A stretch of 63,126 bases of DNA, counting the filler, from Basidioascus undulatus (taxonomy: Eukaryota), in assembly GCA_000826855.1 (NCBI GenBank). It is 6 parts of 6 records of this genome, joined end to end, with 100 filler letters (N's around TTAATTAATTAA, not from the genome) between each part and the next. Parts side by side here need not be neighbours in the genome. Positions count along the whole stretch, not along the records: positions 1 to 27,473 come from JTLS01000163.1; 5 more parts are not named here. One strand, 5' to 3'. The notes beneath the pieces are model-generated. The model was not told the origin of the DNA, made no database searches, and saw nothing but the letters and a program-made list of their open reading frames with translations. The position numbers and the translations under genes were made by a program. Positions 4,782-43,035 of this stretch are shown one piece after another; position 1 is the stretch's first letter, and each line of letters opens with the position of its first letter.

Positions 4782-6081
4782 TCATTGTCCGTGCCCAAGC
4801 CCGCTCATGCCCATGGCCGTGCCCTGGACCTTCTTGTGGTCTGCAAGGACCATCGGATGAACAGTCAGCGAAGCCACACAGACCGCAGAACAGAGACAGA
4901 CGGACCTGCTGGATTCGCTTGGGCTTCGTAGACCGCTGACAAAGACGACGGGTTCCGGGAATGAGCAGAGGTTCATGGGAGAGGGGAAGGGGACAGAGTG
5001 CGCACTGATGACTGGATCGCGCGTTAACTGTGCGTCCCAGCAAGACAAGAAGGTTTGTTAGTGAGAGAAACAGCGATTGTGGAGGGAGGGACGAGGACTC
5101 ACAGCCGACCACGACCCCTTGAACCCGACAAAGCTGACCCGGCTCGTCTCCTCGTCGTCCCCGCCCGAGTGGTTGCCCGGGAAGAAGAGCGTCAGGCTGC
5201 GTACATTCGAGAACTTGGTCGCCCTGTCGTTCGTACATCCATCCACATCAGTCTATCATGACGCAGAGATGGGAGGACGCCGGGGGGAGAGGTAACGCAA
5301 CGCACTTGACCGCAAACTCGACTACGTCGGACGTGATGGGCACTTCGAACTCCTGCGTTGCTTCGCGGCCGGACTCGAGGTCAGAGAAGTCGAGAGAGAG
5401 GTCGTTGGCGTACTGAGAAACATGTCGAGGCAAGTCGTCAGAGGTGGGAGGGGGGGTGAGGGGAGATGAAGGCGAGTCAGGACGGACGACAAGCATTTTG
5501 GATGGGGTGAACCCGGCTGGACCGGACTTGAGAATTATGGAGCGGAGCTTTCTGGAGGCGGGTTAGCGGGGCGCGCGGTCGGGTGATTGCGGGACTGGAA
5601 GGGGGAGGAGGGGAGCCGCACATGTTGCCCGTGAAGGGGACGCGGAGGATGAGCTGGTCGTCGGCGTCGGACTCCAGATACTGAAATTAGATATTCAGCA
5701 TAATTTCAAGAAGATAGAGAGAACGAATCAAACGCACCTCTTCGACGTCTTCCCGCCGATCCCACTCCTTGATCACCCTCTGGCCCATACCCTCCTCCGC
5801 CTCGTTCAGCGCAACGACCTGCAGGCCATTCCGTTTAGCATCCGCATTCCCGTCTTAGAAAGAAACTCCACGTACGTTCGCGCGGTCAATCTTCTCATAC
5901 AGAACGTCCTCCCCGATCCCCGTCCCGGGCGGCAGGTCATGGTCATGCCCGTCGTGCTGCAGGACGCCTGGGATCAGCCCCCTTCTCTCTCTCCCTTTCC
6001 TGGAGTGACTGAGCGCACAGAATAATCATGCTCGTCTGCGCACGAGTGTGAATGTGAATGGTCGTGATGATGATCCGGCAT
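4782..6081 (-). CDS. PITH-domain protein (PITHD1-like), multi-exon
   Basis: His-rich start MPDHHHDHSHSHSCADEHD; LYEKIDRAN; KFSNVRSLTLFFPGN..SRVSFVGFKGSW; YEAQANPADHKKV..GHGQ*. Confidence 0.85.
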
Positions 6082-6287: not shown

Positions 6288-8252
6288 ATGGGCAAAGCAC
6301 GCTCCGCAGCAGCCTCCGGCAAGCGCCACGATCCCCTGCACGTCCAGGTCTCGGAGGACGCGGCGTACCAGAAGTTTGGGCGCGTCACGGCGCCGGGGAA
6401 GCGCAGCAAGGGGAAGGGCAGGGAGGGCGACGAGGAAGAGCGTAGAGTGGTGCGTTGGCCATCTACGCTTCATGCTTTGAGGTATGGAAGCTGAGAAATT
6501 GGCGGGCCCATGGTCAACAGGACGTCACGGACCCAGCCATGTCCAGGAAGATCCTGGCGCTGGCGCGGGAGCAGCAGGACGAGATTGAGCGGGAGGAGGC
6601 GGAGGCGTGTGGAGAGACACTCGAACTGGAGGACGACGATGATGATCAGTGCGTGGACCTGATTAACTTGTGGGTGGCCGGCGAGGCATGCTGACGCCGC
6701 TGGAGGACTGGTAGACCGATGGGGGCTGCCCGCGGCGGGGAGGGATCTGAAGACGAGGAGGAAATTGAAGAAGAAGAGGTGGAGGAGTACGATGTTGATG
6801 AGCTGGTGCATCTTTCTCCTCCCGAGCTATATCTGTCTCACAACGCTCACGCACTTTCCCGCACGCTCTACAGGAGATCGACCCGTCCGACCAAACGCTG
6901 CTGGACCGCTTCCTCCCCCCCGCACCATCCTCCCGACGCACCCTGGCCGACATTATTTTCGACAAGATCGCCGCCGGCCCAGACGGCGGCGATGCTGCGG
7001 ACGGTGGGAAGGGCGCTGCGGACGACGAGGAGGGTGGGGAGCGCCGGATCCCGCCGGGGATGAACGAGAAGGTCGTTGAGGTGTACACGAAGTGGGTCTC
7101 CCTCCTCCCCTCAATCTACTTGCCCCAGATCCCCGCTGATCTGCTGCCTCGCCTCCCCTCCCCAGGGTCGGCGTCCTCCTCTCTCGGTACCGTTCCGGCC
7201 CGCTCCCCAAAGCGTTCAAGATCATCCCCTCCCTCCCGGCGTGGGTGTCGATCCTGCACCTGACCGTGCCCGAGCGGTGGACCCCCCACGCAACCTTCGC
7301 TGCCACCCGCCTCTTCGCGTCCAACCTCAAGGCCGCCCAGACCCGCGTCTTCTACGAGCACGTCCTCCTCGAGCGGTGCAGGGAGAACATGTCGGAGAAC
7401 TCGGGCAAGCTCGATTATCACTTGTACCAGGTGCGTTTGCGGAGCGCTCCGGTTGTGGGCGGGCAGTGCGGCTCATGCGTGCGTGGTGTGGCGAGACAGG
7501 CACTCAAGAAGGCGCTCTACAAGCCCGCGGCGTTCTTCAAGGGCATCCTCTTCCCTCTCTGCGAGGTGCGCAAATCCCTCTCTCTTTCCCCCCACCCCGC
7601 TCACGCGTTTCGGACACCACGACCAGAGCGGCTGCACCCTCAAGGAAGCCGCCATCTTCGCCTCGGTCCTCTCAAAAGTTTCCGTGCCCGTCCTGCATTC
7701 CGCCGCGGCCCTCCTCCGCCTCGCCGAGATGGACTACACCGGTACACTTCCCCTCTTCCCTCTCTACCTTCCCTCCTCTTCTCTCCTTCGATCCATTACT
7801 TACTGTGCAGGAGGTTGACCAGGCCCGAACTCCCTCTTCATTCGCGTCCTGCTGGACAAGAAGTACGCGCTCCCCTACAAGGTCGTCGACGCGCTCGTGT
7901 TCCACTTCCTCCGCTTTGCGCGGGACGAGCGCAAAATGCCCGTGCTTTGGCACCAGAGCCTGCTCGTCTTCTGCCAGCGGTACAAGTCGGACTTGACCCC
8001 TGACCAGAAAGACGCTGTTCGTCCTGTCTTTCCTGCTTCCCCCTCTTCCCCCGTCCCCCCGTCTTTCTTTTCGTTTCCTCGGTTCGCCTCCCGGTTGGCT
8101 GCTAACGTGGGGTGGGTTTGATGCAGCTCCTCGACGCCATCAAGATCGAGACGCACCACCAGATCTCGCCCGAGGTCCGGCGCGAGCTCGTCAACAGCGT
8201 GCCGCGCGGGGAGGCCATCCCGGACGCGCCGGAGGTCGACATGGACTTCTAG
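6288..8252 (+). CDS. ENP1: Bystin / Enp1, 40S biogenesis factor
   Basis: [96 protein letters not shown]. Confidence 0.95.
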
Positions 8253-9192: not shown

Positions 9193-10067
9193 GTCGATCT
9201 CTATACGGTAAGGAAATATTGTTTATGAGACTCTGAGTGCAAGCCACGGGCTCCGCAGGCTCGTCGAGCTCTCCGGAGAGCAGATCGGCAATCTGTGACG
9301 TCAAACACGATAAGTTACGCTCGGAAACACTCACATCGAAGAAGAGGCATCGGCCTGCGAAAGACTTTTTTCAGTTCTATCGCAAGCTGTTGAAATTGTA
9401 AAGTATTCAATACTGAAGCACGCTCGGAATCTAGCCCACGCATCGTTGTGGAACACGAACCCTTGACCAGCTTCTAGCGCCAGCTGTCCTCTCACCCACC
9501 GAGCACCTGTTAGTGTGATCTTCTATGTATGGCCACCAGGCTAATGAGGATACTGAACATTTAATTTCATACAAACACAATGTCATGAAAGAACAGGAGG
9601 CGCATTAGGTCAAGCTTCCCGCAGCGGGTGAAACCGCCGCTGTAGCTGTAATAACGTCCATGCCTTTGCCTTTCCCTCGTCCGCTGCAAGGGGTCCGCAG
9701 CTATAGTACCATCGGGGTGGTGTATTGATATCAATAAAGATATTGAACTTCTTAGTCCTCCCCAAAGAATTCTCTGGGGTTCCAGATATTCGGACATTCA
9801 ACCTCTGTGCCAGCTTCGGCATGCATTATCGTCGCTCTCAAGCAAAAAGGTCCATTACATGGCAGTAAATATCCCTCATCGACCGTTTCTAGAAAATACA
9901 AGTGTTCTATTACACACATAGCTATCAACTTATGTAAGCTTAGTCGACCAGGAAGGGTCAGGTTGATAAATGCATCTTGCGCTGAGAATACCCCAGCAGG
10001 TAAGTCAACCGCTTTCGCTGAGCATGTTGAAGGTATTCCGTGCTCACATGCTAGTTCAAGGGTGCCA

Positions 10068-11043
10068 TTACGAGGTCTGCAAACAAGCAATGAGCGAAAT
10101 CCCTCAAACAGCTGTGGCTGAGGGCTGACACTGGCACTTACGTTCGTGACAACCCCCAACTTGACGAGGTCTGCAAGGTTGATGCCGAGCACAGAGTTGA
10201 GTTGGCGGGAGTAGCGCCGGTCCCAAGGAGGTCAGAGAGAAGGAGTCCGTCCCGCTGCTCGAGCTGAAGTAGAAGGGTTAGGCATGATTTAAAAGACAAG
10301 CTGAGTACATCTCACTCACGTTGCTACGCTTGTTGGTCTGTAACAAGGTCCCCTCTACAGGTAAGCAGCAGCACTCGAAGCCAAGAGCTGTCCCTAGCGC
10401 ACCTCGTTGATGGACCAATCTTCAGGATGTCTCCGAGCGAAACGCCCAGAACAGAGTTGACGTGGTCAGGTGTGGCTCCACTGCCGAGTAGGGCAGAGAG
10501 GATGTCGGAAATGAGTCCGTCGCGCTGCTCGAGCTGCAACAAAGGCTTCAATAACAGCTATGCGACGGGAATAATATTCACTTACACTGTCACGCTTGAT
10601 GGTCTGAAACGAAAACAGGGTGATGAGCGAGACGGCGAACGTCAGTGGAGAACAGGTTGGTGGAAAACGTACCCTTGTAACGGCGCCGATCTTGAGCAGG
10701 TCTGCAAGAGAGATGCTGAGAATGGAGTTGACCTGGTCTGGGGTAGCGCCCTCCCAAGGAGAGCAGAGAGGAGGTTCTGGATGAGTCCGTCATGCTTCTC
10801 GACCTGTGGAAGCATGGTTTCAGCGCTGTTGTCCAACAATCTCGCAATTCAGAGTACCAGTATACGTGGAACTCACACCAGGGAACACCAGGCCTCCTCG
10901 GGGATGCCTGCAAAACGTGCTGACAGCCCAGTGTTTGCGTTGAAGGTGGACCGTGCCGCAACGAGACCGCTGGCGTCGGCGAAGGGCGCGGCGGACACGG
11001 CAGCAGCCGCAAGGGCGAGGGGAATGAGGGAGCGGAAGAGCAT
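10068..11043 (-). pseudogene. Secreted Kex2-processed repeat-peptide precursor (KEP-like), three amphipathic repeats, frameshifted
   Basis: Signal peptide MLFRSLIPLALAAAAVSAAP; repeat exons 10803-10673, 10533-10403 and 10263-10142; micro-exons 10603-10586 (TIKRDS) and 10337-10320 (TNKRSN); terminal exon TS*. Each repeat exon lacks 1 nt relative to the others. Confidence 0.8.
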
Positions 11044-11162
11044 TTGGGATGGAGAGTAGGGGTAAAAGTTTAGAAGTGTTTCCGTGGTAAGACGTGGGCA
11101 GAGGGGAAGGTGGTGAAGAACGTGAACGAGGACAAGAGGACGACCGGCACGAGCTGGTCGAT

Positions 11163-11169
11163 CTTTATA
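11163..11169 (-). promoter_or_regulatory. TATA box (TATAAAG) of the repeat-peptide gene
   Basis: About 120 bp upstream of the ATG at 11043. Confidence 0.55.
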
Positions 11170-13173
11170 CCTCAGCGACGGGGTCATCCAAGAAGTAATG
11201 ACAAGCCACCGTGAGCGTCAGGAGCGGTTTGAAGGGGCCTTTCCAAAGTGTGCAGTAGGCTTGTTCAAAAGTGGAAGTCAACCACGCCGGGTGAGCTCGT
11301 TGAAGTTCTGCACTGAGGTGAGTGAGCCATGCGGTCCAGCCATTTCCCAGCCGCCGCAATGCCCCGCTCGCAGGGGATACACGGTAAAGTTACCGGATGA
11401 CTGAGATGAGCATGAACATTTTGAAGTTGAGGCGTGCGACACCGTGGTTGGTACGCGTATGCGAGAGTCGCCAGTACCGCGGGACGAACTGCCCGTTGCG
11501 GGGATGCAGGCAAAAATTTGGTGCTAGGCAATGCATGCAGCACGACGTTGTGCCCCTCGCCTTATGGCGTGCTGGTTGACTGCCTTCCACTGCTTAATTT
11601 GTCAACACACAGGCATTAGGATGACAGAATTGCCTCTTGGGGTACACCCACGTCCATCCCGAGCAGCGCCAGGGCAGCGCTTGGGGAGTAATAGCGCAAT
11701 ATTATCCCGCAGCTGATGTTGATGTGAGACTGCCGAAGCAGCGGCTAACGAACCTTTCACTTCCCTTTTTCTTGTAGCTCCCTAGAAATGGTATAGAGTC
11801 AACAGTGGCATAAGTGCATTTGACGTGCACGCGAGCATACTGCAGCCCAGCAACGAGTAATGCTTCTTGTACCCTCACTTGCGACCGGAGAGGCAATGCC
11901 CAACGCCTCGGTTTCAACATAGGAACTATAGAGTTGTTTGAGAGCCTTCTAGGGCTCGTGGATGAGCTGTTGTCATTGGGTGATTAGCACGGCCACTCGC
12001 TCGCAGCGTGCTTCGCTATGGGACACGGTGAAGGCTATGTCGACGGGGCCTCCACTGCCCTGCCGTGCACGCAACTGAATGCAGGCTTGTAATGAATTAT
12101 AGCCCACAAAGTTCAGATGGTCTACTCTGACGGCCCTGTTCGTGCAACGCGCCACCAACCCAGTGTGTATTTTCACGCCGATACGCGGTTGGGAAGTTTG
12201 TCAGAGTCCTATGGGTCAATAGTTTAACGGGTTCCTACAAAATGCTCATTTACAACATAGGAGGAACTTGTTTAACCACGGCTTACGGAGTAAGCGGCGA
12301 CCTGGAAGCCGTCTTTGGCAGAGCCAATGCAGGTGGCTCGGATGTGCACACTACCTCGGAAGAGTGATGCAACCTTGGGGAGCTCTTTCATAATCTATAA
12401 TGGTGTTCTTGATTATGAATGACTCGACAGGCCACACTATCTCTGCAAGGATATAGTAGGCCGTTATGGGTGTGAGAGTGGCCTTCAGGCTTCAGGCAGG
12501 GGCAGGGCCCACCTTGATGACCACGTAACAAGTCAAAGGGTTGATGCTTGTCGTTCCTCTAAAAACTGTCTTTGTTCCAGCAAGTCACGTCATCGTTGTT
12601 AAGAACGCTCCTTCCCAACGCTCGTGTGTGGGTTGAAACAGCCCCTTCAAACTTCCAATGCCTTGTGTGGCCCTTTCCCTAACACCTTTGCCAGACCGAT
12701 AATATCCAAGGTCTTCCACTACACTCGACCAATGAGTTCTTTCCACATGCAGTGTCGAGATGTGTTCCACTCGATTGCCGCACGTGCACAAGTAGTGCAA
12801 GGCGTAGCGGTGTAGCGCGTTGGCAGGCGATGCCTTCCGCCTGTGATGTTGAAGGGGAGCTTTTCCTTTTTGTTGATCATCTAGCTTCTACACCCCTTGG
12901 GGAAAATGGCCAAACAGCCACATGTCATACACAACGTGCCTGTTTTGAGCCATCAGACCAGGGTAGAAACGCAAGCCACCTCCCCTCCCCCTCGAGTCCG
13001 CGGACCTCCCGCCTTCGCGCCTTCGGCAAAGGACCTTCGCGCGCCCCCTGGCAGGCCTCGTCGGTTCTCTCCACGCCAGCTCCGTCGTTCCAGCACAGCG
13101 CAGCGTCGCCCACACTCTACGCCCAGTCCACTCCTCCCCGCTCTTTTCTCTCTCCCCGCCCCGACCCACCGCC

Positions 13174-13854
13174 ATGTCTTCTTCTTCCTGTGCGTCGCCG
13201 CGCTGCTGCCCAGGGCCATGCCGAGCACAGCCCGACTGATAGGGAGCGCGTCGTGTCCTGCTACAGCCCAGCCTACCCCCCGGTACCGCCAGGCCACGGC
13301 CACCGACATCCCCACGCGTCTTAAGGCCGCCGACATAGCCTCCCTCAGCCGCACGCCGGGCGGCAACAACCTCATCTACGGGAGCACGCCCGGAGGGTGA
13401 GTGGGCTCCGGCAGATGGCGGGGTGGAAGCGGGGGCGGGGCCCGTGGGGTGCGCAGGGAGAGGAGCGGGCAGGGGCTTATTCGGGGCGTTCCGTGACGGC
13501 AATGGTTAGGACGAAGATCGTGTACTCCCGGGACCAGCTGCTCTCGCTGGCATCGAGCCCGCTGTCCCACACGCCTCCCAAAGGTGCGTCTTCTTCCTTC
13601 CGTCACCCGCACATCTCTCTGTGTTGCTGATGATAATTCTCTTGCCAGGCCTCAACAACTTCCCCCCCGAGATGTCGCGCTCCTTCAAGGCGACGAGCGG
13701 GCTTTCCTCGCCGTCCTTCATCCCCTCCCGCGGCAACGGCGACGTGCCGCCCCTCTCGGCCGGCAAGGCTGACAACGGCAAACCCGCCGTGGACGCCAAG
13801 ACCCAACACGATAAGGGTCACGCGGACGAGGAACAGTTCGAGATGGACGTTTGA
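13174..13854 (+). CDS. eIF4E-binding protein (4E-BP family), 4 exons, 141 aa
   Basis: Exons 13174-13189, 13267-13396, 13510-13583 and 13649-13854 join in frame: SRTPGG..YGSTPGGTKIVYSRDQLLSLASSPLSHTPP..EEQFEMDV*. Confidence 0.92.
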
Positions 13855-19122: not shown

Positions 19123-21352
19123 ATGGCGCCCTCATCACTCGCCAGCGCGCCCAAAAAGCGCAAGCTCACGCCTTCCGCAAAGTCCTCTAGGGCCTTAGCC
19201 TCGGTCCCGGCGCTCGAAGCTGCGCTGAACTCCCTGACGGACCTCAACCCGCTTGCGGACCTCGTCCAGCTCGCGCTCACGTCCGCCGACCCTCGCACAT
19301 CGCACAAGGCGCTCTTTGCCGCCCAGCGCGTGTTCGCGAACCTCATAGTCAAAGGTCGCTTGGTTGGCGGCGTCGCGGGGGCCAAAAAGGACGCGGAGGA
19401 GGTGAAGATTGTCAGGCGGTGGGCGATTGAGCGGTACAAGGAGTACGTTCTAGGGTGCGGCGGGTTGCTGCGGGATGCCGAGAAGGGTCTTCGAGTGAGT
19501 GAACATCATCTTTCTGGAGGATCGAGATGGCATCTGATAGCTCTTCAACCAGTCCGCCGCTCTCACCATCCTCCTCTCCCTCGTCAGCACCGAGTCTTCC
19601 TACCTTTCCTCCCTCTCCAAGCCGCCATTTCCGCAAATTGCGATCGACACCTTCCGCCGCTTCACCCGCGCGATGCTTCTCGGCTCTCCCTCTCCGCGCT
19701 CTGGCTCTTGCGCCGACGCTCCGGATGCGTCCCTGCCTCTGCCTGAAGACGTTCGGGACGAGTTCCTCGAGAAGTGGCTCGGGAAGTGCGACGATGTGCG
19801 GTACTGGTTCTTGAAAGAGGCAACGTAAGTTCTCACTCTCAACGCCCTGTGATGAGATCCTGACTGTTCCGCGGATCAGCAACCTCCTCAAGTCCTTCGA
19901 CAACGCCAAGCCCTCTACTCTCCCTCGCCCAGCGCACCTCACCTCCAACCTCCTGTCCCTCCTCGAGCGACTCGACACACTCCCGACCGAAGCGTCCGAG
20001 ATCAACGAGTTCTGGATCTCCGAGTTCGCGACGCCTCTCGACCCCGAGACGTCCGCCGCGGCGTCCAAGAAGAAGAAGAAGAATGCGGGTGCGGCCGCGG
20101 CGGACGAGGGCGCCGAGGACTGGCGCGACTACTTCGACACGTCCTCGGAGGACGAGGGCGACGACGAAGACAAGCCCAAGAAGCGCGCGCCGACGCCGCG
20201 GGACATGCATGCGCTCCCGGCGCACCGCGCGCTCTTCTCGGCGTGCTGGCTCACGCTGCTCCGCGTGCCTGGCGGGCTAGCTGCGCCCGAGGCAAGGCGC
20301 GCCCTCACGGTCATGCATCAGCTCGTCGTCCCGCACTTGCGCGGCCGCGAGCGCGTCGGGCTCGGGGACTGGTTCGGAGACTGCTGTGACGCGGGCGGCG
20401 TCAGCGCGCTGCTCGCGCTGAACGGGCTGTGGAGGTTGATGAGGGATCATAACCTGTGCGTTTATGTTCTTGTTTTCGTCATCGCCGCCCATCAACTTCA
20501 TCCTGACCCTGCTCCTTCAGTGACTATCCCGACTTCTACAAGCGCCTCTACGCCCTCCTCGACCGCGACGTCATGCACGTCCGCTACCGCGCCCGTTTCT
20601 TCCGCATGCTGGACCTCTTCCTCAACTCTACGTAAGCCCTGATCCCTGCTTCCTCGTACCTTCCCAGCTGCTAACACTCTGATCCTCCAGCCATCTTCCC
20701 GTTGCGCTGGTCGCGTCGTTCATCAAGCGCCTCAGCCGCCTGTCCATCTCTGCCCCGCCCGCCGCCGTCGTCATGATCATCCCCTTCGTCTACAACCTGC
20801 TTAAGAAGCACCCGGGCTGTATGGTTCTCATCCATTCCACCTCCGACGCCCAAGGTGCGGTGTCTCCCTCGGCCGTTTCGTCTCTCGAAGCTGACGTGGG
20901 ATTGCGCCGAACAGGTGCCGACGCCGACGCTTTCGACGCGACCGAGACGGACCCCAACCACGCACGCGCGCTCGAGTCGTCCATCTGGGAGCTCGCGAGC
21001 CACCGGCGACACTACAACTCGGCCGTCTCGGCGATGGCGAAGGTGTTCGAGGAGGTGTTCACCAAGCCGAACTTCGCGATGGAAGACTTCCTCGACCACG
21101 CCTACAGCACCGTGCGTTCATTCCTTCCCCGCTCTTATGAGGATCTTCGTCGATGGGCCGCTGAACGGCGTGTGCAAACAGATGTTCGAGACCGAGGCGA
21201 AGCGCAAGCTCCGGAACCCGCCGGCGCTAGCGGACGACCTCGAGGGCGAGGTGTTTGGCGGACCGGTCCGCAAGCGCAAGGCGGCTGTCGAGGCGGAGGA
21301 GGATTCGGGCGCGCTGCCTAGGGACGCTGTTGCGGAGATCTTCGCTTTCTAA
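19123..21352 (+). CDS. NOC4: Nucleolar complex protein 4 (CBF/Mak21 family)
   Basis: DDVRYWFLKE, LLALNGLWRLMRDHNL/DYPDFYKRLYALLD..HVRYRARFFRMLDLFLNS, LVASFIKRLSRL, IPFVYNLLKKHP, ALESSIWEL..HY, EDFLDH. Confidence 0.93.
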
Positions 21353-41849: not shown

Positions 41850-42801
41850 CACCAGTCCGCACCCATCTCTCCCTCGCCTCCCTCACATCTTCCTCGCCCC
41901 ACGTCCTCCTCCCCGCCCGGACATCCTTAAACAGCCCGCCGATCCACTCCCGCTCCTCCGCGTCAAGCAGGCAGTTCACCCACCACGTGTCCATGCTTTG
42001 CACGATCCCCGGCGTGGCGAGCTCGCCGTGCGCGGATTGCTCAGCGAGGACGTGCAGGAGGAAGGGGAACGGGTAGTGTGGGAGGCCGAGCAGGGAGAGG
42101 GATTTGAGGATGCGGGTGATGCGCAGATTCTGCTCCCCCACCACCTCATCAGTTTCTCCCTCCCTCCCTCCCGAGCGCACCCAACTTCCCACTCACGTTA
42201 TGCATCTTCCCCTCCAAATTCGCGTACCTCTCCTGCCACCCTTTCTCCTTCCTTCCGACCTCCCCACTCTCCTCATCCACCAGCCGCATCCCATAGAAAT
42301 CGAGCATCATCTCGTAGCTCCTTCGCAGGCGCGCGCGCACGCCTGCGTCGCGCGCCATCGCCGCGCGCTCGTGCGCCTGCAGCGGCTGCGCAGAGTAGTT
42401 CACGCCCTGCTCGGGGATGGGGAACAGCCACTGGATGAAGCCGTGGCGCGCTTCGAGGAGGTCGTAGGCGCCCGAACATTGGGAATGCATCTCGTCGATG
42501 CGAAGGTTGTCGGGGCGCGCGCGGAGCTCGTTCACTCCCACACCCCCATTGGGACTGCTCTCCCTGTAACGGGGAGGGAAAAGAGCAAGGAGGGGCATGA
42601 GCGCACCTTGTAGAACCGCAGATTCTTGTCCGCCGAGCGATCGTCGTGCTGGTTCGGATAGCCGGCAAGGAACTGGGCGATGTCGCGCGGGAGGCGCGCG
42701 GAGGAGGACGTGGACATAGCGGCAGCGGTGGAAGGGTTCGTGGGGTGTAGGTATGCGCGAGAAGGGTATAATTTGCTCATGAGCGTCCGGAAATATTGCA
42801 T
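41850..42801 (-). CDS. OGFr (opioid growth factor receptor) conserved-domain protein, 3' truncated
   Basis: NLRFYK, YDLLEARHGFIQWLFP, YEMMLDFYGMRL, HN/NLRITRILKSL. Confidence 0.9.
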
Positions 42802-43035
42802 CGATGGGAATAGCGCGCTTCGTGAGGGTGAGAGCGTAAGCGAGCGAGGCGAGGAGGGCGAGGGCCAGATTACGTCACCGTCCGTATCGCATCCTTTCAT
42901 CCGCGGACGCCGGACGCGCGTCGCCCTCGCCGCCATCGACGCTCAGCCTTCTACTCACACTCATCAGCGTCTTCTCTCTTCCTTCCCTAGCATCCCCACA
43001 CCGCGCATACCCACACCCCCTGCCCGGACCAGCCA

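Follow-up and report, generated by a model that had tools for sequence, protein, structure and literature searches.

A decayed gene of Basidioascus undulatus with the architecture of Kex2-processed repeat precursors and KR sites on 18-nt micro-exons

Kex2-processed repeat proteins (KEPs) are widespread in fungi, and most are without a known function. In Candida albicans, Ece1 is a secreted polyprotein cut at KR into several peptides, and candidalysin is a cationic, amphipathic lytic helix. Definitions of KEPs have been provided by Le Marquer et al. 2019 (PMC6339444), Umemura 2020 (PMC7329392) and Vogt et al. 2022 (PMC9769878), with a published unit length of 3–352 residues (PMC6339444). The Le Marquer pipeline requires that four or more fragments result when all KR and RR are cut (PMC6339444), and the Vogt screen requires two or more dibasic sites, a length of no more than 800 residues, and one fragment that shares 70% identity or more with two others (PMC9769878). 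A described example is Rep1 of Ustilago maydis, for which KEX2 processing is reported to give 10 peptides of 34–53 residues, with the hyphal surface as their site of action (PMC3133707). With regard to micro-exons, about 9% of the gene models of the agaricomycete Coprinopsis are stated to contain one of 15 nt or less (PMC12230235), and in the literature that was surfaced by searching, Kex2 and micro-exons were found together in nothing beyond a yeast-lipase study.

The locus described here lies in a 63,126-nt stretch of B. undulatus DNA (assembly GCA_000826855.1; hereafter the window), on the minus strand at 11043..10068, and is best read, at slightly better than an even chance, as a gene copy, now dead, that once encoded a secreted repeat precursor of modular, KEP-like design, with predicted release of peptides by Kex2. 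Behind a TATAAAG box it comprises a signal-peptide-like exon, three homologous exons (R1–R3), two 18-nt micro-exons and a 9-nt terminal exon (Table 1). An earlier note on this DNA had described the promoter box, signal peptide, repeat exons and both micro-exons with their clean flanks, all of which were recovered, the unit readings agreeing exactly when an X is placed at each break; the terminal exon, the cassette length of 270 nt and the loss of one base from every repeat exon are additional to it. Each of the six introns is bounded by GT and CAG, the least canonical donor, GTGCGC, also being used by the Bystin gene of the same window. Exon 1 could alternatively end at 10877 with the donor GTGAGT, giving a 51-nt intron 0 (10876–10826) that has the better donor, stays in frame and adds eight codons before R1. 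Its N-terminus, judged by the n/h/c rule of thumb, combines a basic n-region (M-L-F-R, with R4), a 12-residue hydrophobic core and the sequence V-S-A|A, with small residues at -3 and -1. R3 differs from R1 and R2 by a 3-codon in-frame gap. The length of the intron after R1, 69 nt, is divisible by three and no in-frame stop occurs in it, such that retention of this intron alone would keep the frame, and retention of the 52-nt intron after micro-exon 1 would break it.

Table 1. Positions of the gene pieces and of recognised neighbouring genes, numbered along the window.
Feature	Position	Strand	Remarks
TATAAAG box	11163..11169	-	120 nt 5' of ATG; by sequence, putative
Start codon ATG	11043	-	by sequence
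Exon 1: ATG, signal-peptide-like 18–19 residues, ~36-residue pro-region without KR	10879..11043	-	donor GTGTGA
Intron 0, 75 nt	10804..10878	-	
Repeat exon R1, 131 nt	10673..10803	-	one base missing ~10752/10751, after codon 17
Intron after R1, 69 nt	10604..10672	-	GTACGT...CAG
Micro-exon 1, 18 nt, phase 0	10586..10603	-	T-I-K-R-D-S; CAG before, GTAAGT after
Intron after micro-exon 1, 52 nt	10534..10585	-	GTAAGT...CAG
Repeat exon R2, 131 nt	10403..10533	-	40 codons in frame; one base missing ~10413/10412
First in-frame stop, TGA	10422..10424	-	codon 142 of the unrestored spliced gene
Intron after R2, 65 nt	10338..10402	-	GTGCGC...CAG
Micro-exon 2, 18 nt, phase 0	10320..10337	-	T-N-K-R-S-N; CAG before, GTGAGT after
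Intron after micro-exon 2, 56 nt	10264..10319	-	GTGAGT...CAG
Repeat exon R3, 122 nt	10142..10263	-	one base missing ~10206/10205, after codon 19
Intron after R3, 65 nt	10077..10141	-	GTAAGT...CAG
Terminal exon, 9 nt	10068..10076	-	T-S-stop; third homologous acceptor, in the place of a third micro-exon
PITH	5251-5562	-	Pfam E 2.2e-6
Bystin/Enp1 gene	7140-8118	+	three exon pieces, Pfam profile positions 48-159, 158-202, 197-266
eIF4E-BP	13325-13627	+	Pfam E 3.2e-5, marginal match at cut-off
CBF/Mak21	20683-21318	+	Pfam E 8.9e-29
OGFr_N	42149-42874	-	Pfam E 8e-37

Similarity among the three repeat exons is evident in translation (tblastn between repeats, E 2.5e-8 to 3e-3) and in DNA (blastn, E down to 3e-13), and the units in restored frame share 27/42, 26/39 and 25/39 residues (64–67%). 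Differences between unit pairs fall at codon positions 1/2/3 as 11/5/23, 9/5/16 and 9/5/20, which is an excess at the third position, and GC content across the restored codons is 0.64/0.38/0.70 by position. Since dN/dS between the units is 0.18, 0.39 and 0.29, and the 138 restored codons contain no stop, a result equalled by 67 of 5000 shuffles (1.3%), the repeats have evolved as coding sequence, and the locus was genuinely a coding gene in the past. The two cassettes, each made up of a repeat exon, an intron, a micro-exon and a further intron, are exactly 270 nt long; their exons and micro-exons are 66–73% identical in DNA, and the intron bodies are at shuffle level in three of four comparisons (identity reached by 90, 105 and 231 of 300 shuffles), the exception being I1a against I3a (2/300). 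This demonstrates, as far as sequence comparison goes, that the gene grew by duplication of the 270-nt cassette, in keeping with the two-exon duplication that the earlier note envisaged. The micro-exons themselves are identical at 13 of 18 positions (reached by 8 of 300 shuffles), and at 25 of 32 without a gap when the splice flanks are included. T-x-K-R is conserved between the two linkers and the two residues that follow vary, with KR encoded as AAG CGT in both, albeit in the restored frame only. Conservation of this kind points, though indirectly, to inclusion of the small exons by splicing and to a role for the KR.

The lengths of R1, R2 and R3 (131, 131 and 122 nt) are each of the form 3n+2, i.e. 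one base short. When spliced without restoration, the 594-nt CDS follows the homologous frame for 72 codons and is then out of frame up to the TGA, with neither KR being read. Contigs rebuilt from two public read sets, X1 (2014, depth 18) and X2 (2025, depth 47), span 9900–11300 with no other letter and no gap, and no contig with an inserted base was found in either; X1 and X2 stem from different studies, and either may underlie the assembly, so that at most one of them is independent. A third read set, X3, from the same sample as X2, gave no contig over this stretch, which bears neither way on expression. Because one base is absent from each repeat exon, a stop is reached at codon 142 and the two read sets agree, this copy is a pseudogene, and the “ancestral”, broken state that had been ascribed to the gene is accounted for by three 1-nt deletions. 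The decay is recent, as the restored frames contain no stop. The three deletions together amount to three bases, so that the CDS regains the terminal frame, which would be relevant only if the TGA at 10424–10422 were bypassed, and this sum is treated as a coincidence. Rescue of the frame by an alternative donor, GTTTTC, 4 nt downstream of R1, was considered and rejected: it would recover the phase and still leave the unit out of its own frame.

Elsewhere in the same genome there is a longer paralogue, at single-copy depth. It was recognised on a second contig in both X1 and X2, of similar depth to the first (17.7 and 41.2), which matches three pieces of the gene: the start of the signal peptide with the first 20 codons (11045–10984; 7 differences in 62, i.e. 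55/62 identical), the start of R1 (10806–10757; 6 differences in 50), and most of R2 (10540–10444; 18 differences in 97). The paralogue is known from about 200 nt, through these contig matches. Among the eight differences listed, four are synonymous and four are conservative replacements, and a 30-letter loose end past 10444, translated by hand in the same frame, gives the homologous decapeptide I-S-Y-G-D-L-V-K-I-G. Its unit starts lie 1118 nt apart, against 270 in the window; this spacing fits about four cassettes, and therefore the paralogue probably has at least five units. Present function, if it persists, would rest with this paralogue.

In the searches for relatives, the four exon peptides gave no Pfam family at E <= 10, such that a match to a known unprocessed folded domain, which the earlier note had named as a possible refutation, did not emerge. 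A profile of the unit, run against 1,835,955,588 representative proteins, returned six hits at E <= 0.001, comprising by Pfam four ankyrin-repeat proteins, one saposin-B repeat protein and one huge repetitive protein, and no fungal precursor was among these six. The alignments cover 17–27 columns only, at a helix-turn motif, and hhalign assigned a probability of 37.8% to the ankyrin protein (21 columns) and 5.9% to the saposin protein; five of the six hits are explained by a shared turn motif at a helix end, L-L-x-x-G-A-x-P-D-x-[VI]-N. Word-indexed protein searches gave 52 candidates for R2 among longer proteins and 3108 for exon 1, with none at E <= 1 in either case, and the ESM Atlas gave no usable match. 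A metagenome scan with the 77-residue stop-to-stop frame around R2 produced 592 pattern matches and no confirmed one, and a second scan, for G-A-T-P-D-[QH]-x-N-S-x-L as a degenerate pattern of 32 nt, produced three loci of unrelated context, with GC contents of 0.63, 0.45 and 0.34, whose surroundings resemble membrane transporters by eye. Within the window, tblastn with all pieces of the gene found no further copy. Sequence search of the PDB gave four weak rows, headed by a designed helical repeat protein (E 9e-4).

Overall, the searches brought up neither a relative nor a known folded domain, which agrees with the caution of the earlier note in claiming analogy and not homology. These negatives are weak, because the proteomes of the organism itself and of close relatives are absent from the searched library, as can be seen from the Bystin exon of the window: its best database match, from Wallemia, is only 63% identical, and the next matches, at 54–60% (Tremellales ~58%), are spread over Tremellomycetes, Ustilaginomycotina, Pucciniomycotina, Glomeromycotina, Mucoromycota and chytrids. 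The window is fungal, and its lineage is probably a thinly sampled one among the basidiomycetes. The recognised genes of the window are of the housekeeping type (Table 1). The introns of the Bystin/Enp1 gene are of about 60 nt, with the donors GTGCGC and GTACAC. A RiPP cluster linked to DUF3328 or a kexin was considered as a setting for the locus and rejected: in 121 frames between 3.2 and 19.7 kb, Pfam gave only PITH, Bystin and the marginal eIF4E-BP, with no DUF3328, kexin or other peptide-modifying gene.

Structure prediction by AlphaFold2 for R2, using a five-row alignment of the repeats as input, gave a helix at residues 2–18, a three-residue turn at G-A-T-P and a second helix at 22–39, with a mean pLDDT of 76.7. 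Foldseek of this hairpin model against the PDB gave no match at E <= 0.001, and a complex prediction with three copies of the R2 peptide (score 0.01, mark 0.32, “no answer”) speaks neither for nor against association. The units contain no cysteine and carry net charges of -1, -4 and -2. Their best helical hydrophobic moments are 0.26–0.44, values reached by 54–85% of shuffled peptides. The helix-GATP-helix arrangement that had been proposed for the peptides is therefore supported at the level of prediction and their amphipathic character is not, and a membrane-active role is likewise unsupported, the net charges being unlike those of cationic lytic peptides.

Several other explanations have been weighed. 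That the locus is a non-coding 270-bp tandem DNA repeat with frames open by chance would suit the exactly equal length of the two cassettes, but is scarcely credible given the dN/dS of 0.18–0.39 and the third-position excess, the rarity of so open a frame among shuffles (1.3%), the conservation of exons and micro-exons alongside randomised introns in three of four comparisons, and the signal-peptide-like exon upstream. Another is that the three missing bases are errors of assembly in an intact gene, as each repeat exon lacks a single base and the three deletions together restore the terminal frame of the 594-nt CDS. Against this, the X1 and X2 contigs, which differ in year and study, are identical at every letter, no break site is a long homopolymer, and the nearby Bystin gene has normal introns and no frame errors; assembly error is thus an unlikely cause of the missing bases, and an intact gene at this position most improbable. 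It is also decidedly unlikely that the locus is still functional, whether through a truncated product of 141 residues or through intact alleles carried by other strains or haplotypes. By sequence, the promoter box, the start codon, the signal peptide and every splice site are intact, and the stop-free restored frames indicate that decay is recent; nevertheless, the homologous frame would cover just 17 residues of a single unit in such a product before giving way to 69 residues read out of frame, later junctions lie far downstream of the stop, and no alternative contig with an inserted base occurs in either read set.

The main rival concerns the ancestral product, which could have been an uncut, folded, secreted helical-repeat protein of three packed helix-turn-helix units, to which the KR pairs were incidental. 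The units could equally pack in this way, as one protein with linkers that merely contain KR: the predicted fold of each is a helical hairpin presenting hydrophobic faces, their hydrophobic moments are unremarkable, the PDB sequence search has a designed helical repeat protein as its best, albeit weak, match, and in four of the six profile hits the helix-turn motif is matched by an ankyrin-repeat protein. On the other hand, no Pfam repeat family was matched at E <= 10, the hhalign probabilities are low and cover 21–27 columns, and what the two linkers have conserved is T-x-K-R, with variation in the two residues after it. Kexins, moreover, normally cut a KR that is exposed in a linker of a fungal secretory-pathway protein. 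On this balance an uncut repeat protein is considered unlikely, and the KEP-like precursor is retained as the preferred reading.

For such a KEP-like precursor, the ancestral product would have entered the ER by means of its signal peptide, and in the late Golgi a Kex2-type convertase would have cleaved it behind every exposed KR, with a Kex1-type carboxypeptidase trimming the basic ends. This would have released three anionic helix-turn-helix peptides of about 45–48 residues, following the same logic as KEPs. As no KR lies between the signal peptide and R1, the first peptide would retain an extension of about 36 residues. The weakest step is the role of the peptides, which is a guess: they may have been associated with the wall or surface, or otherwise extracellular, in place of acting as cationic membrane-lytic agents. 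A bolder proposal, regarded as quite a long shot, is that intact family members, the longer paralogue first among them, have one exon per peptide unit and one 18-nt phase-0 micro-exon per KR, with regulated skipping setting whether single or fused hairpins are released. If true, proteolytic processing would be programmed through splicing, and the peptides would make up a new class of anionic helical hairpins that act outside the cell, from a basidiomycete-like lineage of which few members have been sampled.

The value of the locus itself is limited, as this copy is a pseudogene for which no relatives were retrieved, and the paralogue is the object of interest. A family with units and cleavage sites on separate frame-neutral exons would nonetheless offer precursors a simple route of growth, by duplication of cassettes, and frame-neutral exons for the cleavage sites would in principle provide a means of coupling splicing to processing. 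There is also a warning for annotation, in that 18-nt exons are easily missed, and missing them removes the cleavage sites from predicted proteins.

Compared with known systems, the units share the turn motif at a helix end with ankyrin repeats and saposin B domains, but at 44 residues they are longer than the 33 of an ankyrin repeat, and the Ank profile was not matched (Pfam E <= 10). Saposins are built on conserved cysteines, which the units lack, and the SapB_1 and SapB_2 profiles were likewise unmatched at that threshold. The secreted polyprotein with KR cut sites is a likeness to Ece1, although cutting is only predicted here; candidalysin, being cationic and amphipathic, differs from these anionic units, whose amphipathicity does not exceed that of shuffled sequences, and no sequence similarity was found. 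Closer in general plan is Rep1, likewise a secreted pre-pro-protein of repeated units, and the 45–48 residues expected for the peptides here fit the range given for it (PMC3133707). Rep1, however, contains 12 repeats and assembles into amyloid fibrils; the present units are predicted helical hairpins, and no sequence similarity to it was detected among the six profile hits, in a library that may or may not include Rep1.

The architecture matches that of KEPs, and by analogy the locus resembles a decayed member of this kind. It has, by the sequence rule, an N-terminal ER signal peptide, three similar units in tandem, a KR between each pair in the restored frame, and a unit length within the published range; it is unlike KEPs in having only three units and two KR sites, and in its broken reading frame. 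The KEP architecture proposed in the earlier note therefore stands for its signal peptide, its three units and the KR on both micro-exons, and falls short of the numerical rules as these are described: the restored protein, with two KR and no RR, would give three fragments and not the four of the Le Marquer pipeline (PMC6339444), and it satisfies the number of sites and the length of the Vogt screen with a unit identity of 64–67%, just below 70% (PMC9769878). None of the five or six unit motifs compared occurs in the examined supplements of Le Marquer, Umemura or Vogt, although the Umemura table appears to list accessions, among which the family could be present unseen. The clearest difference lies in the gene structure: whereas the main texts of these surveys are without discussion of it (“exon” being absent from those of Vogt and Umemura, and “intron” occurring 0–1 times in those of Le Marquer, Vogt and Umemura), here every unit has its own exon, and every candidate cleavage site its own micro-exon.
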